From assembly GCA_030679145.1 (NCBI GenBank), contig JAUXTU010000036.1, forward strand, positions 86,480-150,479: a stretch of 64,000 nucleotides of DNA, written 5' to 3'. The position numbers and the translations under genes were made by a program. Shown here piece after piece: positions 1 to 8,725 of the stretch. The number at the start of each line of letters is the position of its first letter. Positions within the stretch are counted from its first letter, which is position 1. Under the pieces are notes generated by a model. The model saw only the letters and a list, made by a program, of their open reading frames with translations. It did no database searches and was not told the origin of the DNA. The DNA comes from Bacteroidota bacterium (GTDB taxonomy: Bacteria; Bacteroidota; Ignavibacteria; UBA10030; UBA8401).

Positions 1-596
<596 letters not shown>

Positions 597-925
597 TCAA
601 AAAAAATTGTGCTGCTGATGATCGTATTGTTCTCGAGTAGTTCACCCGGAAATCCTGTATTGCAGTGTAGTGTGAATTAAACTGACCATCTATCTGCAAA
701 TACATTGCCAGATTGATTTTGTAAGATTTATTGGAAATTTTTGCAAAACAGAGGGATTTTCAGCAGATTTTTATTAACTATTTTTCAGTTGTAGGAATGT
801 CGGAATTCGGAGTCTTATTTGTAAGAAAGGAAAAAAACGAGATTTCTGTCTGAGAAAAGGGAAACAGGATAAATCTATCCCGATTTCCTCGAAAAAGAAA
901 AATCCCCATAATTTGAAGAACCGAA

Positions 926-1462
926 TTAATGAATGAGTCTTTTGTAAGCAATCGCAATATGGTGCGGTTTCATGAGTTGCTTTTTGCGGGTTGTCCAATT
1001 ATGTATTTCTGATTGGATTTGTTCGACGGTATATTGTGGAAAGTTTTTCATAATAAAATCTACCGTTGCGAGTAATTCTATTCCATACGGGGATTCAAAT
1101 CCTTCAATTAACAACAGAACTTTTTCTATTCGTTCTCTTTGCTCCTGAGTTAAATTTCCTTTGACATATGCATCAACCATAGAAAGGTTTTCTTCATTCA
1201 TGGTTATTACCGTTGCAGGCTTATTATCTTCGTGTCTGAACTGAATAAACGTTCCATTCAGATGTTGAAGCAAATGGAGCAGTTGATGTGAATAGGGACC
1301 ATATTGACTTTTTTCAAATGTAATTCTATCAGTTCCTAAAAAATATGCAAGATATTGCGCAACTAAAGTATTTATGGAATAACCTAAGATACGATAACGG
1401 CTCATCACAAAGACCAGCATTGCTTGCTCGTTGGTTATTGCATAAGTATTGTGAATGCTCAT
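926..1462 (-). CDS. Hypothetical 178-aa protein, last gene of a 3-gene PIN operon.
   Basis: ORF track. It starts 21 nt downstream of the PIN gene on the same strand. I recognise no motif in it. Confidence 0.5.
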   Translation of the reverse strand: MSIHNTYAITNEQAMLVFVMSRYRILGYSINTLVAQYLAYFLGTDRITFEKSQYGPYSHQLLHLLQHLNGTFIQFRHEDNKPATVITMNEENLSMVDAYVKGNLTQEQRERIEKVLLLIEGFESPYGIELLATVDFIMKNFPQYTVEQIQSEIHNWTTRKKQLMKPHHIAIAYKRLIH

Positions 1463-1483
1463 ACCGTACGTTGTCGGTTACTA

Positions 1484-1993
1484 TTACAAATTTAAAATTC
1501 CGAATGTTTCGTGATGCGGAACAGAGAGATTAATAAACTGGAATTTTACGGGTGTATGTTGTTTTAGTAAATCGAAGATTTTTTCACTCTCACCATCGGA
1601 TGAAATATAGTAATCTATCGTAGGTTCAACATCAGCCCGCGCAAATAATTTTGTGTCATTAGGAATGATTGCGCGTTGAGTTACTTGAAGTGATTTTTTA
1701 TGATCGAAAACAATTCTTGCGAATTCACCGGTGCGTTTTGCATGATCTAAATTGAAGGGAAGTATTTGAACTGTTTTAAGAGGAAGTTCCTGAATTGTTC
1801 CGCGAACACAGTACTCGGCAATACTGATTGTGGACACCATCATCACAATATCTTTTTCCAAGAAATATTTGAAGTATCCATCGGCATTGTTAAATAATGG
1901 ATCGGCATCATTGAGGAAACGAAGAAAAAAACTTGTATCAAGCAACACCGATTTATGCGTCATATCCTCCTCGTAGTTCACGGAGCCAGCCAT
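1484..1993 (-). CDS. PIN-domain ribonuclease (VapC-like fold).
   Basis: LLDTSFF motif near the N-terminus, plus acidic residues at about 58 (IAEY), about 110 (IPNDT) and about 135 (SSDGES). This is the classic four-acidic-residue PIN signature. The gene overlaps the upstream gene by 41 nt, which suggests translational coupling. Confidence 0.7.
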   Translation of the reverse strand: MAGSVNYEEDMTHKSVLLDTSFFLRFLNDADPLFNNADGYFKYFLEKDIVMMVSTISIAEYCVRGTIQELPLKTVQILPFNLDHAKRTGEFARIVFDHKKSLQVTQRAIIPNDTKLFARADVEPTIDYYISSDGESEKIFDLLKQHTPVKFQFINLSVPHHETFGILNL

Positions 1994-2738
1994 CGGGGTT
2001 TTTCAACGCTCCAAGCCAGTTTTTTTTCGCCTTGTTTCGCAACGACGTTAAGTATCGGTCATCGTATTTTGGTTGATATTCAACCATTTCAAGAAATTGT
2101 AACGTAGATTTATCTATTTCTCCTGTCTCAGTATGCTGTTTTCCTTTTGCACGGATACCAAAGGTTTTATACAACATATTATCATCGTACGTTTCCAAAA
2201 ATGAGATCGGTGTTTCCACTCGAATAATTCCCTGATCTTCGGTATAGATATGAATATTCGCTTTTTCTTTCCCTCCGGCATTCGTTACTTTGCCGTAGAA
2301 ATAAAATTCAGCATCAGCCCATACTAATTCGGTGCGTTGGAAGTGTGTTGTCCTGTCAATGATTATTTCGTTTGAATTGAGAACTGAAGTAGAAAGTGTA
2401 AACGTGTAATTTTTTTTGACAGCAGTATCTTGAAATTCTTCTATAGCACGAGCGGTTGGGGCATCTAAAAAATCTATTGTTTGCGACTGGTTAATGGAAC
2501 CGATCAAAGCATTAAATCCGATGATGTATTGCAGGGAAGTTTTAAAAATATGGCGCACCGATCCCTCTTCAATTTTATAACTGATAAGAGGACGCTCCTT
2601 TTTTTCACCCGGATACAGAAGGTTTTCGGTTTTTTCCAACACCTCTTTTATTTCCCGAATGTCGTATGTTTCCGGTGAAAGGGGAATATTACCGTGTGAT
2701 CCTGTTATCCGTATTTCTATATAACCAGTTTTTTCCAT
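1953..2738 (-). CDS. Hypothetical 261-aa protein, first gene of the PIN operon.
   Basis: ORF track. No recognisable catalytic motif, and no Walker A motif. AT-rich promoter-like region upstream (2739-2907). Confidence 0.5.
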   Translation of the reverse strand: MEKTGYIEIRITGSHGNIPLSPETYDIREIKEVLEKTENLLYPGEKKERPLISYKIEEGSVRHIFKTSLQYIIGFNALIGSINQSQTIDFLDAPTARAIEEFQDTAVKKNYTFTLSTSVLNSNEIIIDRTTHFQRTELVWADAEFYFYGKVTNAGGKEKANIHIYTEDQGIIRVETPISFLETYDDNMLYKTFGIRAKGKQHTETGEIDKSTLQFLEMVEYQPKYDDRYLTSLRNKAKKNWLGALKNPDGWLRELRGGYDA

Positions 2739-2907
2739 ACACTCAATGTAATAAAAGTGAGTTTTGTTTCAAAGGTACGTCAAATATTGCCAGTAAAATC
2801 AGCAATTTTAAAACGCTATAAACTTCTCATCCAAATAATGCTTCAAATTCCATATCTTCATTACACTTACTTTTTACTATGTTTAATATAGTAATCATTT
2901 ATCGTTG

Positions 2908-3672
2908 TTAATAAATCTCTCCATCCAAGATCTTTCGCGCGATCAGCTTTGTATATTCCGAAAAATCTTTATCGAGCATCCATTTCACCATTCCAAGATT
3001 ATCGGCAACGGGCATTCCTTTGTTCTTGCCGAAGGTAAATATGATCTCACCGTTCTTATCGCGGGAAAATTTTCGATCGTAGTCCAGATATTCACTTTCC
3101 TGGAATGAATATTCGTGCAGCGCATCGGTGGTGGGAGTGATGTCGGAATATTTTTGTAATTGTCCGTTCAACACTTTGATCGTTGCTTCAACATCGGCTT
3201 CGGCGGAGTGGGCATTGATGATCTCTTCATTTGCGTAGAATTTCAATGCGGCGGCAAGATTTCGCGGTTCTTTTTTAAAATAAATGGAAACAGAATCGAT
3301 CACTTTTATTTTTTCAAACGGATTTCTTCCAAGTCCGGCGCGAAGCAATTCTTCCACAAGAAGGGGAATATCGAACTTCGCAATATTATATCCCGCAAGG
3401 TCGCAATCGGAGAAGAACGCAGCAATTTCATTTACCCGCTCACGAAAGGTCGGTTCGTTCACCAGCATTTCATCAGTGATTCCATGAATGGCAGTTGCAC
3501 CGGCAGGAATAGGCATTTCGGGATAGAATCGCTGTAACAACATTGCACGCGATTTATCAGGAAAAATTTTAATGGCGCACAGTTCAATGATCCGGTCTTT
3601 GGTAAGACTGATACCGGTGGTTTCAAGATCAAAAAAAATAAGCGGGCGTTGGAGAATAAGAGTTTCAAGCAT
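2908..3672 (-). CDS. DEDDh 3'-5' exonuclease (DnaQ/epsilon-like) with a C-terminal extension of about 90 aa.
   Basis: Exo I motif FFDLETTG, Exo II motif YNIAKFDIPLL, Exo III motif HSAEADVEAT. Confidence 0.8.
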   Translation of the reverse strand: MLETLILQRPLIFFDLETTGISLTKDRIIELCAIKIFPDKSRAMLLQRFYPEMPIPAGATAIHGITDEMLVNEPTFRERVNEIAAFFSDCDLAGYNIAKFDIPLLVEELLRAGLGRNPFEKIKVIDSVSIYFKKEPRNLAAALKFYANEEIINAHSAEADVEATIKVLNGQLQKYSDITPTTDALHEYSFQESEYLDYDRKFSRDKNGEIIFTFGKNKGMPVADNLGMVKWMLDKDFSEYTKLIARKILDGEIY

Positions 3673-3711
3673 AGTAAAATTGATTAACGATAGTACTGAT
3701 GATAGATAAAA

Positions 3712-3781
3712 CCGTCATGCCCGAATGCTCTTATCGGGCATCTATGTAATGGATTCCCGCTAGAAACATGCGGGAATGACG
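3712..3781. repeat. Palindromic intergenic repeat, CGTCATGCC…GGGAATGACG family. Two nested hairpins.
   Basis: Inverted repeats atgcccgaa/ttcgggcat and attcccgc/gcgggaat. Termini cgtcat…atgacg. Related copies occur at 6240, 11408, 21606, 23695, 24151 and 27474. Confidence 0.6.
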
Positions 3782-3990
3782 TGTATGTTATCCCATGAAT
3801 GATAAATGGGTTGTCGCAATTCTCAAAAGTGATGTCTTTGTCTTGTTTCATTACCGAAAAACACCCAAATTCTATAGAGCAATGGAATTTATCCTACGGT
3901 ACGATTGTTGAGTGATACTAAGACAACATAGAGAAAAAAAATTCATTTTTCTATCAAATTGTGATTCATCTATAATAAAGGAAATGGTGT

Positions 3991-6228
3991 ATGCTTCTGT
4001 TTGGAACATTTGCAATCTATCTTTCACTCTTTGCCGGTCTGCTGTCCATTCTCGGATATGTTCAGGCTGCGAACGGCAACAAGAAAAAATTAACCATCGG
4101 TCGAATTGGATTGAACATCAGTGCACTTGGAATATTTCTCGCGTCCGTTGCGCTAATGACGGATATTCTCCAACATAATTTTGAAAACGCGTACGTGTGG
4201 AGTTACAGTTCGCGCGATCTTTCCACCGCACTGTTGTTCTCTACATTCTGGGCAGGACAGGAAGGAAGTTTTTTATTTTGGACACTCTGCTCCGCACTGC
4301 TGAGTGTGTTTCTGTTATCATACACACGAAAACGAAAATTGGAAGCACACGTACTTCCGGTCTTTCTTGCTATTCAAACATTTTTAGTTGTTTTGCTTAT
4401 CGCAAAATCACCGTTCAAAACTATCTTTGAACAATTTCCCGGAGAACTTTCTCCCGGTCAATTGCCGCTCGACGGACGCGGATTGAATCCACTGCTGCAG
4501 AATTTCTGGATGGTGATCCATCCGCCGGTGTTATTCATCGGATTCGCTGCGGCTGCAATTCCTTTTAGTTTTGCAATTGCGGCGTTGTGGAGAAAAGAAT
4601 ATTCCTCGTGGCTGACGAATGCATTTCCGTGGGTGCTGTTTTCCGGTCTGACGCTTGGTGCAGGATTGATGCTGGGCGCATATTGGGCTTACGGTGTATT
4701 GGGTTGGGGTGGATATTGGGGCTGGGATCCGGTTGAAAATTCTTCGCTGATCCCATGGATCATCTCAATGGCATTGCTTCATACCATGCTTGCTCAATCA
4801 CGGACAGGAAATCTTGTACGAACGAATTTTATCTTTGCCATTCTTCAATTTGTTCTTGTTATCTATTCTACATTCTTAACACGAAGCGGAATTCTTGGCG
4901 AATCATCCGTTCATTCGTTCACCGATCCGGGAACGATCGTCTATAGTTTGTTGATGGTCTTCCTTGCAGGTTCAATCCTTCTCGGCGCCGGATTTTTATT
5001 TCTCCGCCGCGTTGAATTAAAAGCGATTGCAAAACCAATGCATTTTATGACACGCGAGTTTGCATTGTCGCTCGGATCATTCGTCTTGCTGGCTAGTGCA
5101 GCTATTATTTTTTTCGGAACAAGTCTTCCGATCGTTTCATCAACGCAGGTCGATCCGTCATTCTATAACAAGATGCATCTGCCGATTGCAATTTTAATGG
5201 CACTGCTGATCGGATACAGTCTGTTAGTGCGATGGGATATTGAAGATGGAAAAGATCTGCTGGTAAAAGCATGGAAATCATTGACCGCATCATTGGTTGG
5301 AACAGTAGCTATCGCATATTTCAGTATGTGGGAAGCTTCGTATCTGCTTTTCATCTTTGCATCGCTCTTTACATTGTTTGTGAATCTTGAGCAATTGATC
5401 CTGATCATCCGCGGAGACATTCGTATGATGGGAGGAAAAATTGCGCACATCGGCATGGGAATATTTTTGATCGGCGTGATCATCTCGGGATTATTCGATA
5501 AAAAAGAAACAGCAATGCTGGAATTGGGAACAACGCAAAATGTTCTCGGATATTCAGTGACCTACACAGGGAAGAACATTGTTGAAAAGAATAAAACAGC
5601 ATTCTCCGTTTCCGTACAAAAAGAGGGGAGCAACGCACTCCTTCTGCCGACAATGATGGAGACCGAAAACCAGGGAATGATGCGTAATCCCGATATTCAA
5701 TCGTTCTTCACACACGATTTTTATATTTCTCCCTCCGGAATTGAAGAACAGAAGATCGACGAACATGGACACATCACATTAGTGAAAGAAGAGACCGTTA
5801 CGATCGGTTCTGCGCGGGTGACATTTTCCGCGTTCGATATGACCGGACACAATGCAAAGAGTATGGAAGGCGGAACACGGATCGGCGTGAAGCTTGATAT
5901 CGTTTCGGGATATGAAAAAGAAACAGTGATACCGTATGTTATCAATAATGGACAGCAGCAAAAATATTTTGGAGTGAAATCAAAACTGCTCGGCGGAGAG
6001 ATCGAACTGCTGGCAATGAGTATCGGTGGAATGGGAGATGGAAAATCGGCAATTCAGATACAATTGAAAAAAGAGGGAGAAGTAATGCCCCCGATGCAGC
6101 ATAAAGAGGTATTAGTGGTTGAAGCAAGCGTAAAGCCATTCATCAATCTTGTCTGGGTTGGCACGGTACTGGTGCTGCTTGGATTCTTCATTGCAATCTT
6201 ACGAAGGAAACTTGCGGATAGTATATAG
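3991..6228 (+). CDS. Cytochrome c biogenesis heme lyase of the CcmF/CcsA/NrfE family.
   Basis: Polytopic membrane protein carrying the WWD tryptophan-rich motif WGGYWGWDPVENSSLIPW. 745 aa with a C-terminal periplasmic domain. Confidence 0.7.
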   Translation: MLLFGTFAIYLSLFAGLLSILGYVQAANGNKKKLTIGRIGLNISALGIFLASVALMTDILQHNFENAYVWSYSSRDLSTALLFSTFWAGQEGSFLFWTLCSALLSVFLLSYTRKRKLEAHVLPVFLAIQTFLVVLLIAKSPFKTIFEQFPGELSPGQLPLDGRGLNPLLQNFWMVIHPPVLFIGFAAAAIPFSFAIAALWRKEYSSWLTNAFPWVLFSGLTLGAGLMLGAYWAYGVLGWGGYWGWDPVENSSLIPWIISMALLHTMLAQSRTGNLVRTNFIFAILQFVLVIYSTFLTRSGILGESSVHSFTDPGTIVYSLLMVFLAGSILLGAGFLFLRRVELKAIAKPMHFMTREFALSLGSFVLLASAAIIFFGTSLPIVSSTQVDPSFYNKMHLPIAILMALLIGYSLLVRWDIEDGKDLLVKAWKSLTASLVGTVAIAYFSMWEASYLLFIFASLFTLFVNLEQLILIIRGDIRMMGGKIAHIGMGIFLIGVIISGLFDKKETAMLELGTTQNVLGYSVTYTGKNIVEKNKTAFSVSVQKEGSNALLLPTMMETENQGMMRNPDIQSFFTHDFYISPSGIEEQKIDEHGHITLVKEETVTIGSARVTFSAFDMTGHNAKSMEGGTRIGVKLDIVSGYEKETVIPYVINNGQQQKYFGVKSKLLGGEIELLAMSIGGMGDGKSAIQIQLKKEGEVMPPMQHKEVLVVEASVKPFINLVWVGTVLVLLGFFIAILRRKLADSI

Positions 6229-6293: not shown

Positions 6294-6321
6294 TTTAATC
6301 TAACAAATAAAATTACAAAAA

Positions 6322-6357
6322 AGCCTTGCAGAGAAAATTGTCTGCAAGGTTTTTTTA
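6322..6357 (+). terminator. Rho-independent terminator after the ccmF-like gene.
   Basis: Hairpin ccttgcaga-gaaaattg-tctgcaagg followed by TTTTTTT. Confidence 0.7.
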
Positions 6358-6577: not shown

Positions 6578-8725
6578 ATGAAAAATATATTCCGATTTTT
6601 ATCAACAATAATTTTTTTATTTAATACTACAAACACCTTGGATGCTCAGTGGAAACAAACGAATGGACCTTATGGAGGCACTATTTGGGCACTTTTGGCA
6701 CACAACAATTATCTATTCGTCGGGGTTCCTGATAAAGGGATATATCGTTCCTCTGACAACGGACAAAGTTGGGTTTTATCGAACACGGGATTAAAAAGTT
6801 ATGGCATCACTTGTTTAACTACAAATGGAAACGATATTTATGCAGGTATTTTTAATGGCGGCGTATTTCGTTCTACCAACAATGGAGATACTTGGACAGA
6901 AAAGAATAGCGGCTTATCAAACATGTTTGTTATGTCACTTGCTGTAAGTGGAAATAGTGTTTTTGCAGGTTGCCAATTCTTTGGATCAAGCTATACCACC
7001 TTACTCTTTCGTTCTTCCAACAATGGGGACAGTTGGGAAAAAGCAGATTCAGGTTTGTATAAAACTGGTAATTTTCCACATTCCGTGAAATATATGGCTT
7101 TAAATGGAGCATTCGTTTTTGCTAGCACTGACTCTGGTGTGTACCGCTCTGTTATTAATGAAAGTAAATGGACGAAAATCATGAGTGGTAATTCCCAACC
7201 AATGCAACCAATTATTACGAAAGGTGATACAATCTTTCTAGGTGCATGGAACAAAGGCATTTTCCGATCAATAGATAATGGAAATAGTTGGGTTGCAGTC
7301 AACACTGGTATTCCTTATAACCCTTATCAGGGTTATTATGCAGCAAGCATTAAGTCGTTTGCTATAAGTAATGGCAATATATTTGCTGGTGGAAGTAATC
7401 AATTGTTTCGTTCAACTGATGGTGGAAATAGCTGGACAAATATTTTTGGGCAAAGTAACTATTATATTAATTGCATAGTTGTGCAAAGTAATTATTTTTA
7501 TTTAGGTACCCAGGCTGATGGTGTATTATTATTAACCAATAATGGCACCGATGTGAACTTGATAAACACGGGTATAATCAATACTAGTATACATTGCCTT
7601 ACAAGTCTTGGCAGTACCATTTTCGCAGGAGGTATGGGCCTATGTATTTCAACGAATAATGGAGATACATGGACAAATACTGCACCTATAGTCAATGGTC
7701 AAAATATTCTATGTTTAGCAACATATGGAAACATTATATATATGGGAACTAATAATTTTGTATATCGTTCCACAGATAATGGATCATATTGGAGTAAAAT
7801 CGGGCTATCTACAACTCATGCATATAATTGCTTTTCCATCTTAGTGAATAACAATGATATTTTCGTAGGGACTGCTGAAGCCGGAGTTTTTTATTCATCG
7901 AACAATGGAGAAATATGGAGCCAAGTTAATACAGGCTTAACCACATTAGACGTTCGTACTTTGATTTTGAGTGATAGCAATATTTTTGTTGGTACTTATG
8001 GTGGTGGAGTTTATCGTTCATCAAATAAGGGTGCCAGCTGGACACCAGTCAGCAATGGCTTGACTAACTCCAATATTCTATCATTAATAAATGCGAGCAA
8101 TACTATATTCGCTGGTACAGAGCATGATGGTGTTTTTCGATCCACAGACAAAGGAGGAAACTGGATAGATGTTTTTCAAGCAGTAAGGAATTACTACAGT
8201 CTGTATTCTTATTTTTATGCAAGGGCGTTTTTAATCGATAATGATAAAATTGTTTCAGTAGGTTCACCATATGGTGTGATTTATTCTACTGACCAAGGAA
8301 ATTCTTGGCAAAGCAAGAATTCTGGATTGTCTAACCCTGAGATTCAAACCATTACCAGGAATGATGAAAATGTCTTTATTGGCACAACCAGTTCGGGTGT
8401 ATGGAAGCGTCCCTTATCTGAGGTGTTAACTGAGGTTGAAAACAAAACAAACATAATTCCAACTGGTTTTATACTAAAACAAAACTATCCCAACCCCTTC
8501 AATCCAACAACAACAATTTCTTTCACTCTTCCATCCAAATCATTTGTCTCATTGAAAATATTTGATGTGATGGGAAGGGAAGTATCAATTTTGATAGATG
8601 AAGAATTATCTGCGGGAAAACAAACTCGACAATGGAATGCTGTTGATGTTGCGAGCGGTATGTATTTCTATCAATTAAAAGCCGGTTCATTTACCGAAAC
8701 AAAAAAACTTTTGTTACTAAGATAA
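6578..8725 (+). CDS. Secreted BNR/Asp-box repeat beta-propeller protein with a T9SS C-terminal sorting domain.
   Basis: Signal peptide. At least 11 S-x-D-x-G-x-(T/S)-W motifs (SSDNGQSW, STNNGDTW, STDGGNSW, and others). C-terminus LKQNYPNPFNPTTTISF…KKLLLLR. Confidence 0.75.
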   Translation: MKNIFRFLSTIIFLFNTTNTLDAQWKQTNGPYGGTIWALLAHNNYLFVGVPDKGIYRSSDNGQSWVLSNTGLKSYGITCLTTNGNDIYAGIFNGGVFRSTNNGDTWTEKNSGLSNMFVMSLAVSGNSVFAGCQFFGSSYTTLLFRSSNNGDSWEKADSGLYKTGNFPHSVKYMALNGAFVFASTDSGVYRSVINESKWTKIMSGNSQPMQPIITKGDTIFLGAWNKGIFRSIDNGNSWVAVNTGIPYNPYQGYYAASIKSFAISNGNIFAGGSNQLFRSTDGGNSWTNIFGQSNYYINCIVVQSNYFYLGTQADGVLLLTNNGTDVNLINTGIINTSIHCLTSLGSTIFAGGMGLCISTNNGDTWTNTAPIVNGQNILCLATYGNIIYMGTNNFVYRSTDNGSYWSKIGLSTTHAYNCFSILVNNNDIFVGTAEAGVFYSSNNGEIWSQVNTGLTTLDVRTLILSDSNIFVGTYGGGVYRSSNKGASWTPVSNGLTNSNILSLINASNTIFAGTEHDGVFRSTDKGGNWIDVFQAVRNYYSLYSYFYARAFLIDNDKIVSVGSPYGVIYSTDQGNSWQSKNSGLSNPEIQTITRNDENVFIGTTSSGVWKRPLSEVLTEVENKTNIIPTGFILKQNYPNPFNPTTTISFTLPSKSFVSLKIFDVMGREVSILIDEELSAGKQTRQWNAVDVASGMYFYQLKAGSFTETKKLLLLR

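Follow-up and report, generated by a model that had tools for sequence, protein, structure and literature searches.

Locus layout and the inserted block

The DNA analysed here is a stretch of 64,000 nucleotides (nt) from contig JAUXTU010000036.1 of a Bacteroidota bacterium, referred to below as the window. Between the genes for pyruvate:ferredoxin oxidoreductase (PFOR) and ccmF it carries four minus-strand open reading frames (Table 1), which encode a DnaQ-like DEDDh 3'-5' exonuclease, a protein of 261 residues (geneA), a PIN nuclease (geneB) and a protein of 178 residues (geneC). The initial annotation had placed the four frames and the two flanking genes correctly, and had read the four as one compact nuclease module that might represent a new defence or toxin system. 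Our results showed that the candidate novel system is the two-gene cassette of geneA and geneB (A-B), not the four-gene module. With moderate confidence, the locus can be explained as three separate things, namely a backbone exonuclease, a mobile A-B cassette that resembles a toxin-antitoxin or abortive-infection module, and geneC, an orphan half of the antitoxin DarG.

Table 1. Features of the window, with positions counted from its first nucleotide
Feature	Position	Strand	Remark
geneA, 261 residues	1953..2738	-	partner protein of the PIN nuclease
geneB, PIN nuclease, 159 residues	1484..1963	-	longest open reading frame (169 residues) extends to 1993
Overlap of geneA stop and geneB start, 11 nt	1953..1963	-	ATGACGCATAA
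OB-fold domain of geneA, residues ~136-222	2073..2333	-	acidic, isoelectric point (pI) 4.8
Basic C-terminal tail of geneA, residues 223-261	1956..2072	-	pI 9.8; proposed PIN-neutralising segment
Region upstream of geneA	2739..2907	-	guanine-cytosine (GC) content 0.27; predicted promoter boxes
geneC, 178 residues, DarG C-terminal domain	926..1462	-	
Inserted block, ~2.03 kb	880..2907	.	cassette promoter region, geneA, geneB and geneC
Exonuclease, DnaQ-like DEDDh 3'-5', 254 residues	2908..3672	-	backbone gene, outside the cassette
PFOR gene, 5' end	1..573	-	backbone; start at 573
ccmF	3991-6228		flanks the block opposite PFOR
Terminator-like hairpin, then T-rich tract	865..882	-	44 nt past the geneC stop; right insertion edge

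The extent of the inserted DNA was defined by comparison with relatives in which the site is empty (L112-L115), whose exonuclease is at least 90% identical to that of the window as protein and about 83-87% identical as DNA. Their gene maps read ccmF(-), exonuclease(+), a spacer of 95-270 nt, PFOR(+), DHODH and Rrf2, with the PFOR homologue annotated as POR_N/PFOR_II/POR and with none of geneA, geneB and geneC between the exonuclease and PFOR. In blastn alignments, the homology of the window to these relatives ended at the stop codon of the exonuclease (about 2908-2918) and restarted at about 873-879; the segment between these breakpoints, 880-2907, is therefore an insertion of 2.03 kb. Since the exonuclease adjoins PFOR in relatives that lack the three other genes, it is a backbone gene. 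Two contigs with 91% DNA identity to the window also show the order exonuclease, geneA, geneB, geneC, and its limitation to such close contigs marks it as one lineage-specific event.

The borders of the insertion carry little else. Neither a target-site duplication nor terminal (inverted) repeats were found there. The palindromic repeats said to bound the block were not recovered either, as no block-spanning inverted repeat rose above chance-level matches of 70-80%, the local hairpins have stems of just 8-10 bp, and the pair of them at 3717-3777 lies in backbone DNA. The description of the block as AT-rich was right only in a mild sense: its GC content (0.363; window mean 0.394, standard deviation 0.026) places it at the 13th percentile of same-sized windows, and base composition was rejected as a signature of an island. 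Terminator-like sites in the region were no more numerous than in shuffled sequence, and the downstream half of the hairpin at the right insertion edge is kept in the empty-site relatives. An Rfam scan of window positions 1-6000 gave no matches.

The exonuclease itself is an ordinary, housekeeping-type DnaQ-like backbone gene and not part of the cassette. Its assignment to the DEDDh family was borne out by matches to Pfam RNase_T (E 3.7e-24, 86.5 bits against a cutoff of 24) and to the DEDDh model of PADLOC (E 4.7e-29), and by the Exo motifs FFDLETTG (DLET), NIAKFDIPLL (FD) and HSAEADVEA (H-x4-D) in its translation, so that the features of DnaQ-like DEDDh proteins, an RNase_T/DnaQ domain and Exo I-III including H-x4-D, are all present. 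In PADLOC it matched only generic DEDDh-type models, and public sources name the protein "3'-5' exonuclease" or "DNA polymerase III subunit epsilon".

Pairing, expression and mobility of geneA and geneB

geneA and geneB are an obligate pair and form a mobile cassette with a predicted promoter of its own. Its composition was examined at 99 other loci, consisting of 80 genome loci drawn from one-genome-per-species contigs, 12 distant metagenome loci from a scan with a three-sequence alignment of geneA, and 7 viral loci. A geneB homologue follows geneA in 98 of the 99, down to about 30% identity. It lies directly downstream in 79 of the 80 genome loci (tblastn) and in all 19 of the distant (12 metagenome) or viral (7) loci, where the scores of the two proteins fall together. 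Relatives of geneA and geneB also bear adjacent locus tags on shared contigs, and at least 477 species genomes carry the close subfamily. When all flanking open reading frames were clustered, no third recurrent neighbouring family appeared, the best being an ABC-F ATPase at 6 of the 80 loci. The exonuclease and geneC were found near A-B in none of the 99 other loci, and occur together with it only in the 91%-identical relatives.

These counts bear directly on the model of the initial annotation, in which all four genes form one multi-component nuclease defence system. The genes do share a strand and are closely spaced, both in the window and in the 91%-identical relatives, and the exonuclease does match generic DEDDh models of a defence database, PADLOC. 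Against this stand the position of the exonuclease beside PFOR in relatives without the other three genes, the 169 nt with the cassette's own predicted promoter that separate it from geneA, its absence and that of geneC from all the other A-B loci, and the lack of a third recurrent neighbour among the clustered flanking frames. The four-gene model fails the refuting test that the initial annotation itself had set, and is very improbable. Tight same-strand spacing did not define a system here; what looked like one operon was resolved, by the empty-site comparison together with co-occurrence, into three parts: a gene of the backbone, a pair that is mobile, and half of an antitoxin, orphaned.

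The start of geneB that is conserved across the family is Met11 of the longest open reading frame (window position 1963), which yields the 159-residue protein. The overlap of 41 nt between geneA and geneB that had been described holds for the longest frame, and the conserved start reduces it to the 11 nt of ATGACGCATAA; an overlap of this kind implies translational coupling of the two genes. A similar overlap, of about 8 nt plus the stop codon, recurs in most of the 80 genome loci. Between geneB and geneC the reported 21 nt proved correct as a spacing, which is a gap and not an overlap.

Upstream of geneA, an exact consensus match to the Bacteroidota-type -7 promoter box, TACCTTTG, is located at 2777-2770, and the proximal box of the family is degraded in the window to TACATTGA at 2750-2743 by a deletion of 1 nt. 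In 81 upstream regions, 55 matches to the pattern TAnnTTTG lay 11-20 nt ahead of the first geneA codon. The distance from the end of the conserved -7 box to this codon, frequently a GTG, is about 6-12 nt. Judged from sequence, a box so close to the start implies that the cassette has its own promoter and would be transcribed into a leaderless or near-leaderless mRNA. At the other end of the cassette, sequence conservation stops 20-35 nt past the geneB stop.

In 8 of 76 A-B loci, which belong to different orders, the geneB stop is followed directly by a conserved non-coding stretch of about 140 nt (L013, L016, L018, L026, L027, L031, L041 and L048; for example, L018 9258-9400). It had no Rfam match in the six loci scanned, and it could be a 3' untranslated-region element, a small RNA or a mobility-related sequence. 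In the window, geneC takes its position.

The mean identity of geneA was 80.3% within orders and 79.2% between orders, so almost no order-level structure was seen, and many between-order pairs reach 95-98% identity. Such pairs, together with the flat order structure, indicate horizontal transfer. The neighbours of A-B are variable and consist of unrelated housekeeping genes, and no integrase adjoined the chromosomal copies in the neighbourhoods inspected.

The pair also lies inside bona fide temperate-phage contigs. In one (L097, 3567-12273) it lies between the large terminase and portal genes, with integrase, protease and major capsid genes nearby, and in the other (L096, 4171-10583) between DNA methyltransferase/HNH genes and Erf/RecE recombination genes. 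As a cassette with a predicted promoter of its own that sits in these phages, A-B resembles the prophage toxin-antitoxin or exclusion cassettes known as "morons"; unlike them, it was found in only 7 of 2.9 million viral contigs, and most copies are chromosomal.

The two proteins and their possible action

The description of geneB as a PIN protein with a full acidic tetrad was upheld by its predicted fold and by residue conservation. At the sequence level, the match to Pfam PIN (PF01850) stays below threshold (15.1 bits, cutoff 23.6; E 0.036), no match was found in NCBIfam or in PADLOC (E <= 1), and none among PDB sequences with either the single sequence or a profile. The AlphaFold2 model of geneB (predicted local distance difference test score, pLDDT, 82; predicted template modelling score, pTM, 0.81) was compared with the PDB by Foldseek, and the top 20 or more matches were all VapC toxins (TMt 0.6-0.74), for example VapC15 (4chg_A, E 7e-5, TMt 0.73). 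The residues D9, E50, D103 and D123 (numbered in the 159-residue protein) are invariant in 34 close sequences and also across a set of 13 in which the most distant members are represented. The predicted VapC-type fold and the invariant tetrad point to a PIN nuclease whose active site is intact. The family comprises about 1,800-2,400 clusters at 90% identity, as does that of geneA, and all of them are unnamed.

No match to geneA was found in Pfam, NCBIfam, PADLOC (E <= 1), PHROGs or the PDB sequences, and a PDB profile search with a deep geneA alignment returned chance matches to designed proteins only. The family has about 1,800 clusters at 90% identity, all unnamed, and a profile search collected 620 clusters at 50%. 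Nearly all of the latter are 250-265 residues long, with no informative fusions, and the protein is conserved at full length down to 28% identity without the loss of a domain. The protein begins with an alpha/beta domain, continues with an OB fold and closes with a basic tail; its AlphaFold2 model is of moderate quality (pLDDT 73, pTM 0.51). No clear structural match was found for the N-terminal 135 residues or so, while the OB fold was recovered by two methods. The tail, which is the last 39 residues and was modelled with low confidence, ends in a conserved W..WL..(I/L)RG motif in which Arg256 is nearly invariant, and the C-terminal Arg is kept in at least 90% of the deep alignment, down to 23-28% identity. 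By analogy with the tails of VapB antitoxins, the tail may be a segment that neutralises the PIN nuclease, and geneA is regarded here as a putative antitoxin or sensor.

A reading of geneA as a divergent DarT was also considered. It was rejected, because the window holds no DarT or macrodomain remnant, geneA has no Pfam match to DarT, and its fold is different.

Two remarks of the initial annotation held for the pair, namely that the partner of the PIN protein is not a canonical VapB of about 80 residues and that no described defence system fits. No PADLOC, Pfam or NCBIfam assignment was obtained for A-B, which is absent from PADLOC-DB v2, Pfam 2025 (at threshold) and NCBIfam 2026, and the literature searched held no matching two-gene system of a PIN protein plus an OB-fold protein. 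The closest known system is VapBC. The likeness lies in the VapC-like PIN fold of geneB (Rossmann-like alpha/beta/alpha), in the spacing of its acidic tetrad, which is much like that of D7/E42/D98/E119 in Shigella VapC, in the bicistronic arrangement, where the partner gene comes first and the genes overlap, and in the small, self-contained, horizontally mobile character of a cassette found in variable contexts. PDB entries for the D7A and D98N mutants of VapC were among the Foldseek matches to geneB. The differences lie mainly in the partner: geneA has 261 residues against about 70-90 for the antitoxin, it has an OB fold and no recognisable DNA-binding domain (RHH, AbrB, HTH or Phd) by Pfam, and it is more conserved than the toxin, while geneB remains below the Pfam PIN threshold and without NCBIfam or PDB-sequence matches. 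A-B would thus work most like VapBC, yet it lacks both the small DNA-binding antitoxin and sequence-level membership of the PIN family.

Our inference is that A-B belongs with the type II toxin-antitoxin or abortive-infection modules, as a new, VapBC-like one whose OB-fold partner is large and unusual. In such a module, geneB would be a Mg2+-dependent RNase toxin, and geneA would bind it so that the basic, Arg-bearing C-terminal tail occludes the acidic active site. A second function, such as the sensing of a trigger or the choice of substrate, would come from the large, strongly conserved remainder of geneA (its N-terminal and OB parts), and the nuclease would be set free when geneA is lost or displaced.

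The state of geneB in other genomes has some bearing on this mechanism. In about 12 of the 77 loci that could be assessed, the geneB beside a full-length geneA carried a frameshift or an interruption, had lost its N-terminal part or was missing, a count that is biased by the selection of loci through an intact geneA and that may include sequencing errors of metagenome-assembled genomes. The loci concerned are L006, L011, L014, L042, L050, L051, L053, L057, L058, L062, L066 and L072. Disruption of geneB beside an intact geneA is the path of decay expected for a toxin, and the count is suggestive of such decay.

Apart from the bias in this count, several points weigh against the proposed module and against the three-part account of the locus. 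The partner protein is three times larger than known VapB and has no recognisable DNA-binding domain. Compared with the 91%-identical relative, the ratio of nonsynonymous to synonymous substitution rates (dN/dS) was 0.017 for geneA and 0.044 for geneB, so the partner is the more strongly conserved of the two; antitoxins usually evolve faster than their own toxins, and conservation as strong as that of A-B is unusual among arms-race genes. Simple binding of nucleic acids is made less likely by the acidic character of the OB domain, and the model of geneA is only moderate, with the tail its low-confidence part. The A-B neighbourhoods sampled were not obvious defence islands, as judged from the recurrent neighbour families checked and with no systematic enrichment test. 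For geneC, the dN/dS of 0.25 over the first 86 codons, obtained with the same relative, is based on only 27 substitutions.

In an alternative reading, A-B would be no toxin-antitoxin or defence module but an enzyme of two subunits that processes nucleic acids, with the OB-fold protein recognising a substrate and delivering it to the PIN nuclease. The pair would then be accessory cargo of benefit to hosts or phages, for example in RNA/DNA-end processing or recombination. Very strong purifying selection on both genes and the retention of geneA at full length to 28% identity would suit such an enzyme, but its patchy distribution, its transfer between orders and its variable housekeeping neighbours would not. 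Nucleic acids are the usual ligands of OB folds, against which the acidic character of this OB domain has to be set; one phage copy adjoins the Erf/RecE recombination genes, but in L097 the pair sits between terminase and portal. The absence of a PADLOC match for A-B is in line with a processing role, while the nearest folds to geneB are VapC toxins and not FEN or processing nucleases, and a geneB that is often disrupted beside an intact geneA also speaks against it. Taking both sides together, we consider a processing enzyme rather unlikely.

Within the toxin-antitoxin or abortive-infection reading, which we prefer, a more specific and unlikely version is that A-B is an undescribed, Bacteroidota-wide anti-phage abortive-infection system, with geneA as a sensor that holds the PIN nuclease inactive through its C-terminal tail. 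Release would occur when geneA engages a single-stranded DNA (ssDNA) intermediate of the phage or a phage protein of the ssDNA-binding or recombinase type. A sensor role would account for the large size of the "antitoxin", for its several domains and for a conservation that exceeds that of the toxin.

If A-B does work as a toxin-antitoxin or abortive-infection module, it would provide a structurally new class of partner for PIN/VapC toxins, an OB-fold protein of 260 residues that is more conserved than its own toxin. The defence and toxin-antitoxin systems of Bacteroidota are less well studied than those of Proteobacteria. The family is large, with at least 477 species genomes that carry the close subfamily and with 620 geneA clusters at 50% identity, and is now annotated only as "hypothetical protein"; it is concentrated in Bacteroidota, crosses orders and rides temperate phages, which makes it relevant for annotating the genomes of Bacteroidota from the gut and the environment. 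Candidate pairs of this kind are numerous, and the evidence for A-B is computational.

geneC and other features of the region

The 178-residue protein had been listed as unknown. Our searches showed that it matches DarG's C-terminal domain in NCBIfam (antitoxin_DarG, 3e-36, model positions 163-338 of 338, below the full-length cutoff), in PADLOC (DarG, 8.8e-36, positions 159-325 of 329) and in the PDB (7yk3_B, the solved M. tuberculosis DarG C-terminal domain, 9e-13). It keeps all the invariant residues of the family, including the motifs YGPYSH and IEGFESPYG-ELLATVDF, and has a shortened form of the near-invariant QRLGEP loop. The family is small, with 21 database matches, of which the best is 52% identical. 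None of the four proteins matched DarT (PF14487) in Pfam, and tblastn of three DarT sequences against the whole window gave chance matches only (E >= 0.9). No Pfam Macro match was found for geneC and no macrodomain remnant anywhere in the window; none lies upstream of geneC because geneB ends 21 nt before it. geneC is therefore a standalone DarG C-terminal domain that is joined to the cassette only in this lineage.

In DarTG systems, DarG's C-terminal domain by itself binds DarT and blocks its toxicity (PMC7003065), and geneC is homologous to this DarT-sequestering domain. Unlike DarTG, the window has neither DarT nor the macrodomain glycohydrolase, and geneC stands alone with its shortened QRLGEP loop; the locus is not a DarTG system.

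The genomic context of seven geneC relatives was checked, and they lie in DarT-DarG loci, often decaying or split. A full DarT is followed by DarG in L085/L086, and in L118 (1938-3558) DarT, Macro and the C-terminal domain are three separate genes. A truncated DarT stands in front of the relative in L081, and a Macro fragment overlaps the C-terminal-domain gene in L120 (301-1118). In L082 an MNT/HEPN pair lies alongside the relative, with no DarT. In L119 (2688-3582) a 36%-identical protein resembling the C-terminal domain follows a DUF433 gene near a transposase, again with no DarT.

DarG's C-terminal domain may have a wider kinship. The similarity of geneC to Pfam SocA_Panacea (PF13274) is below threshold (14.4 bits, cutoff 25.7), while 3 of 20 members of its family match SocA_Panacea with a best E of 6.7e-4, and this was the sole recurring family below 0.01 besides Macro. 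The weak, recurring similarity hints at a remote, plausible kinship between this domain and Panacea. As in PanAT systems, geneC is a mid-sized antitoxin-type domain encoded beside a toxin gene. The differences from PanAT, apart from the sub-threshold score, are that the PIN gene already has a universal partner in geneA and that geneC is lineage-specific.

These relationships allow another reading, in which geneA, geneB and geneC form a three-gene unit in this lineage, with geneC recruited as a second antitoxin or regulator whose ssDNA mimicry would be directed at the PIN nuclease or at geneA's OB fold. geneC shares the strand of geneB and follows it after 21 nt without an intervening terminator, and it lies in the same insertion, but the arrangement is confined to the 91%-identical relatives and represents one evolutionary event; geneC was found at none of the 99 other A-B loci. 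That it keeps the invariant residues of its family and shows a dN/dS of 0.25 would speak for this reading, but its constraint is clearly weaker than that on geneA and geneB. Panacea antitoxins neutralise many types of toxin, PIN/VapC-like ones among them (PMC10440598), and the DarG C-terminal domain is reported to be an ssDNA mimic (Deep et al. 2023), but the close relatives of geneC belong to DarT-DarG loci. We judge a three-gene unit improbable. Should A-B be the anti-phage system considered above, the ssDNA-mimicking domain may have been co-opted in this lineage to tune it.

In the account that we prefer, of a backbone exonuclease, a mobile A-B pair and an orphan DarG half, geneC is most likely an orphan antitoxin remnant. 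It is still under moderate constraint, and has possibly been retained as immunity against incoming DarT.

Three further features were observed outside the inserted block. The spacer between the exonuclease and ccmF holds two alike GC-rich hairpins of 8 bp with 9-nt loops (3717-3741 and 3753-3777), and the stretch around them (3693-3787, about 95 nt) aligns with the relatives L112/L113 and not with L115/L116; it may be a small indel of the repetitive extragenic palindromic (REP) or miniature inverted-repeat transposable element (MITE) type. A palindrome of about 37 nt at 6315-6356, just beyond the end of ccmF, is kept in L115, where blastn matched it in both orientations, and is probably a bidirectional terminator. 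Further on, a plus-strand frame at 6578-8725 encodes a repeat-rich protein of 715 residues with many "...S.D.G..W..." repeats and the C-terminal sequence NYPNPFNPTTTISF..., which we take to be a type IX secretion sorting domain and which would fit a Bacteroidota-type genome.

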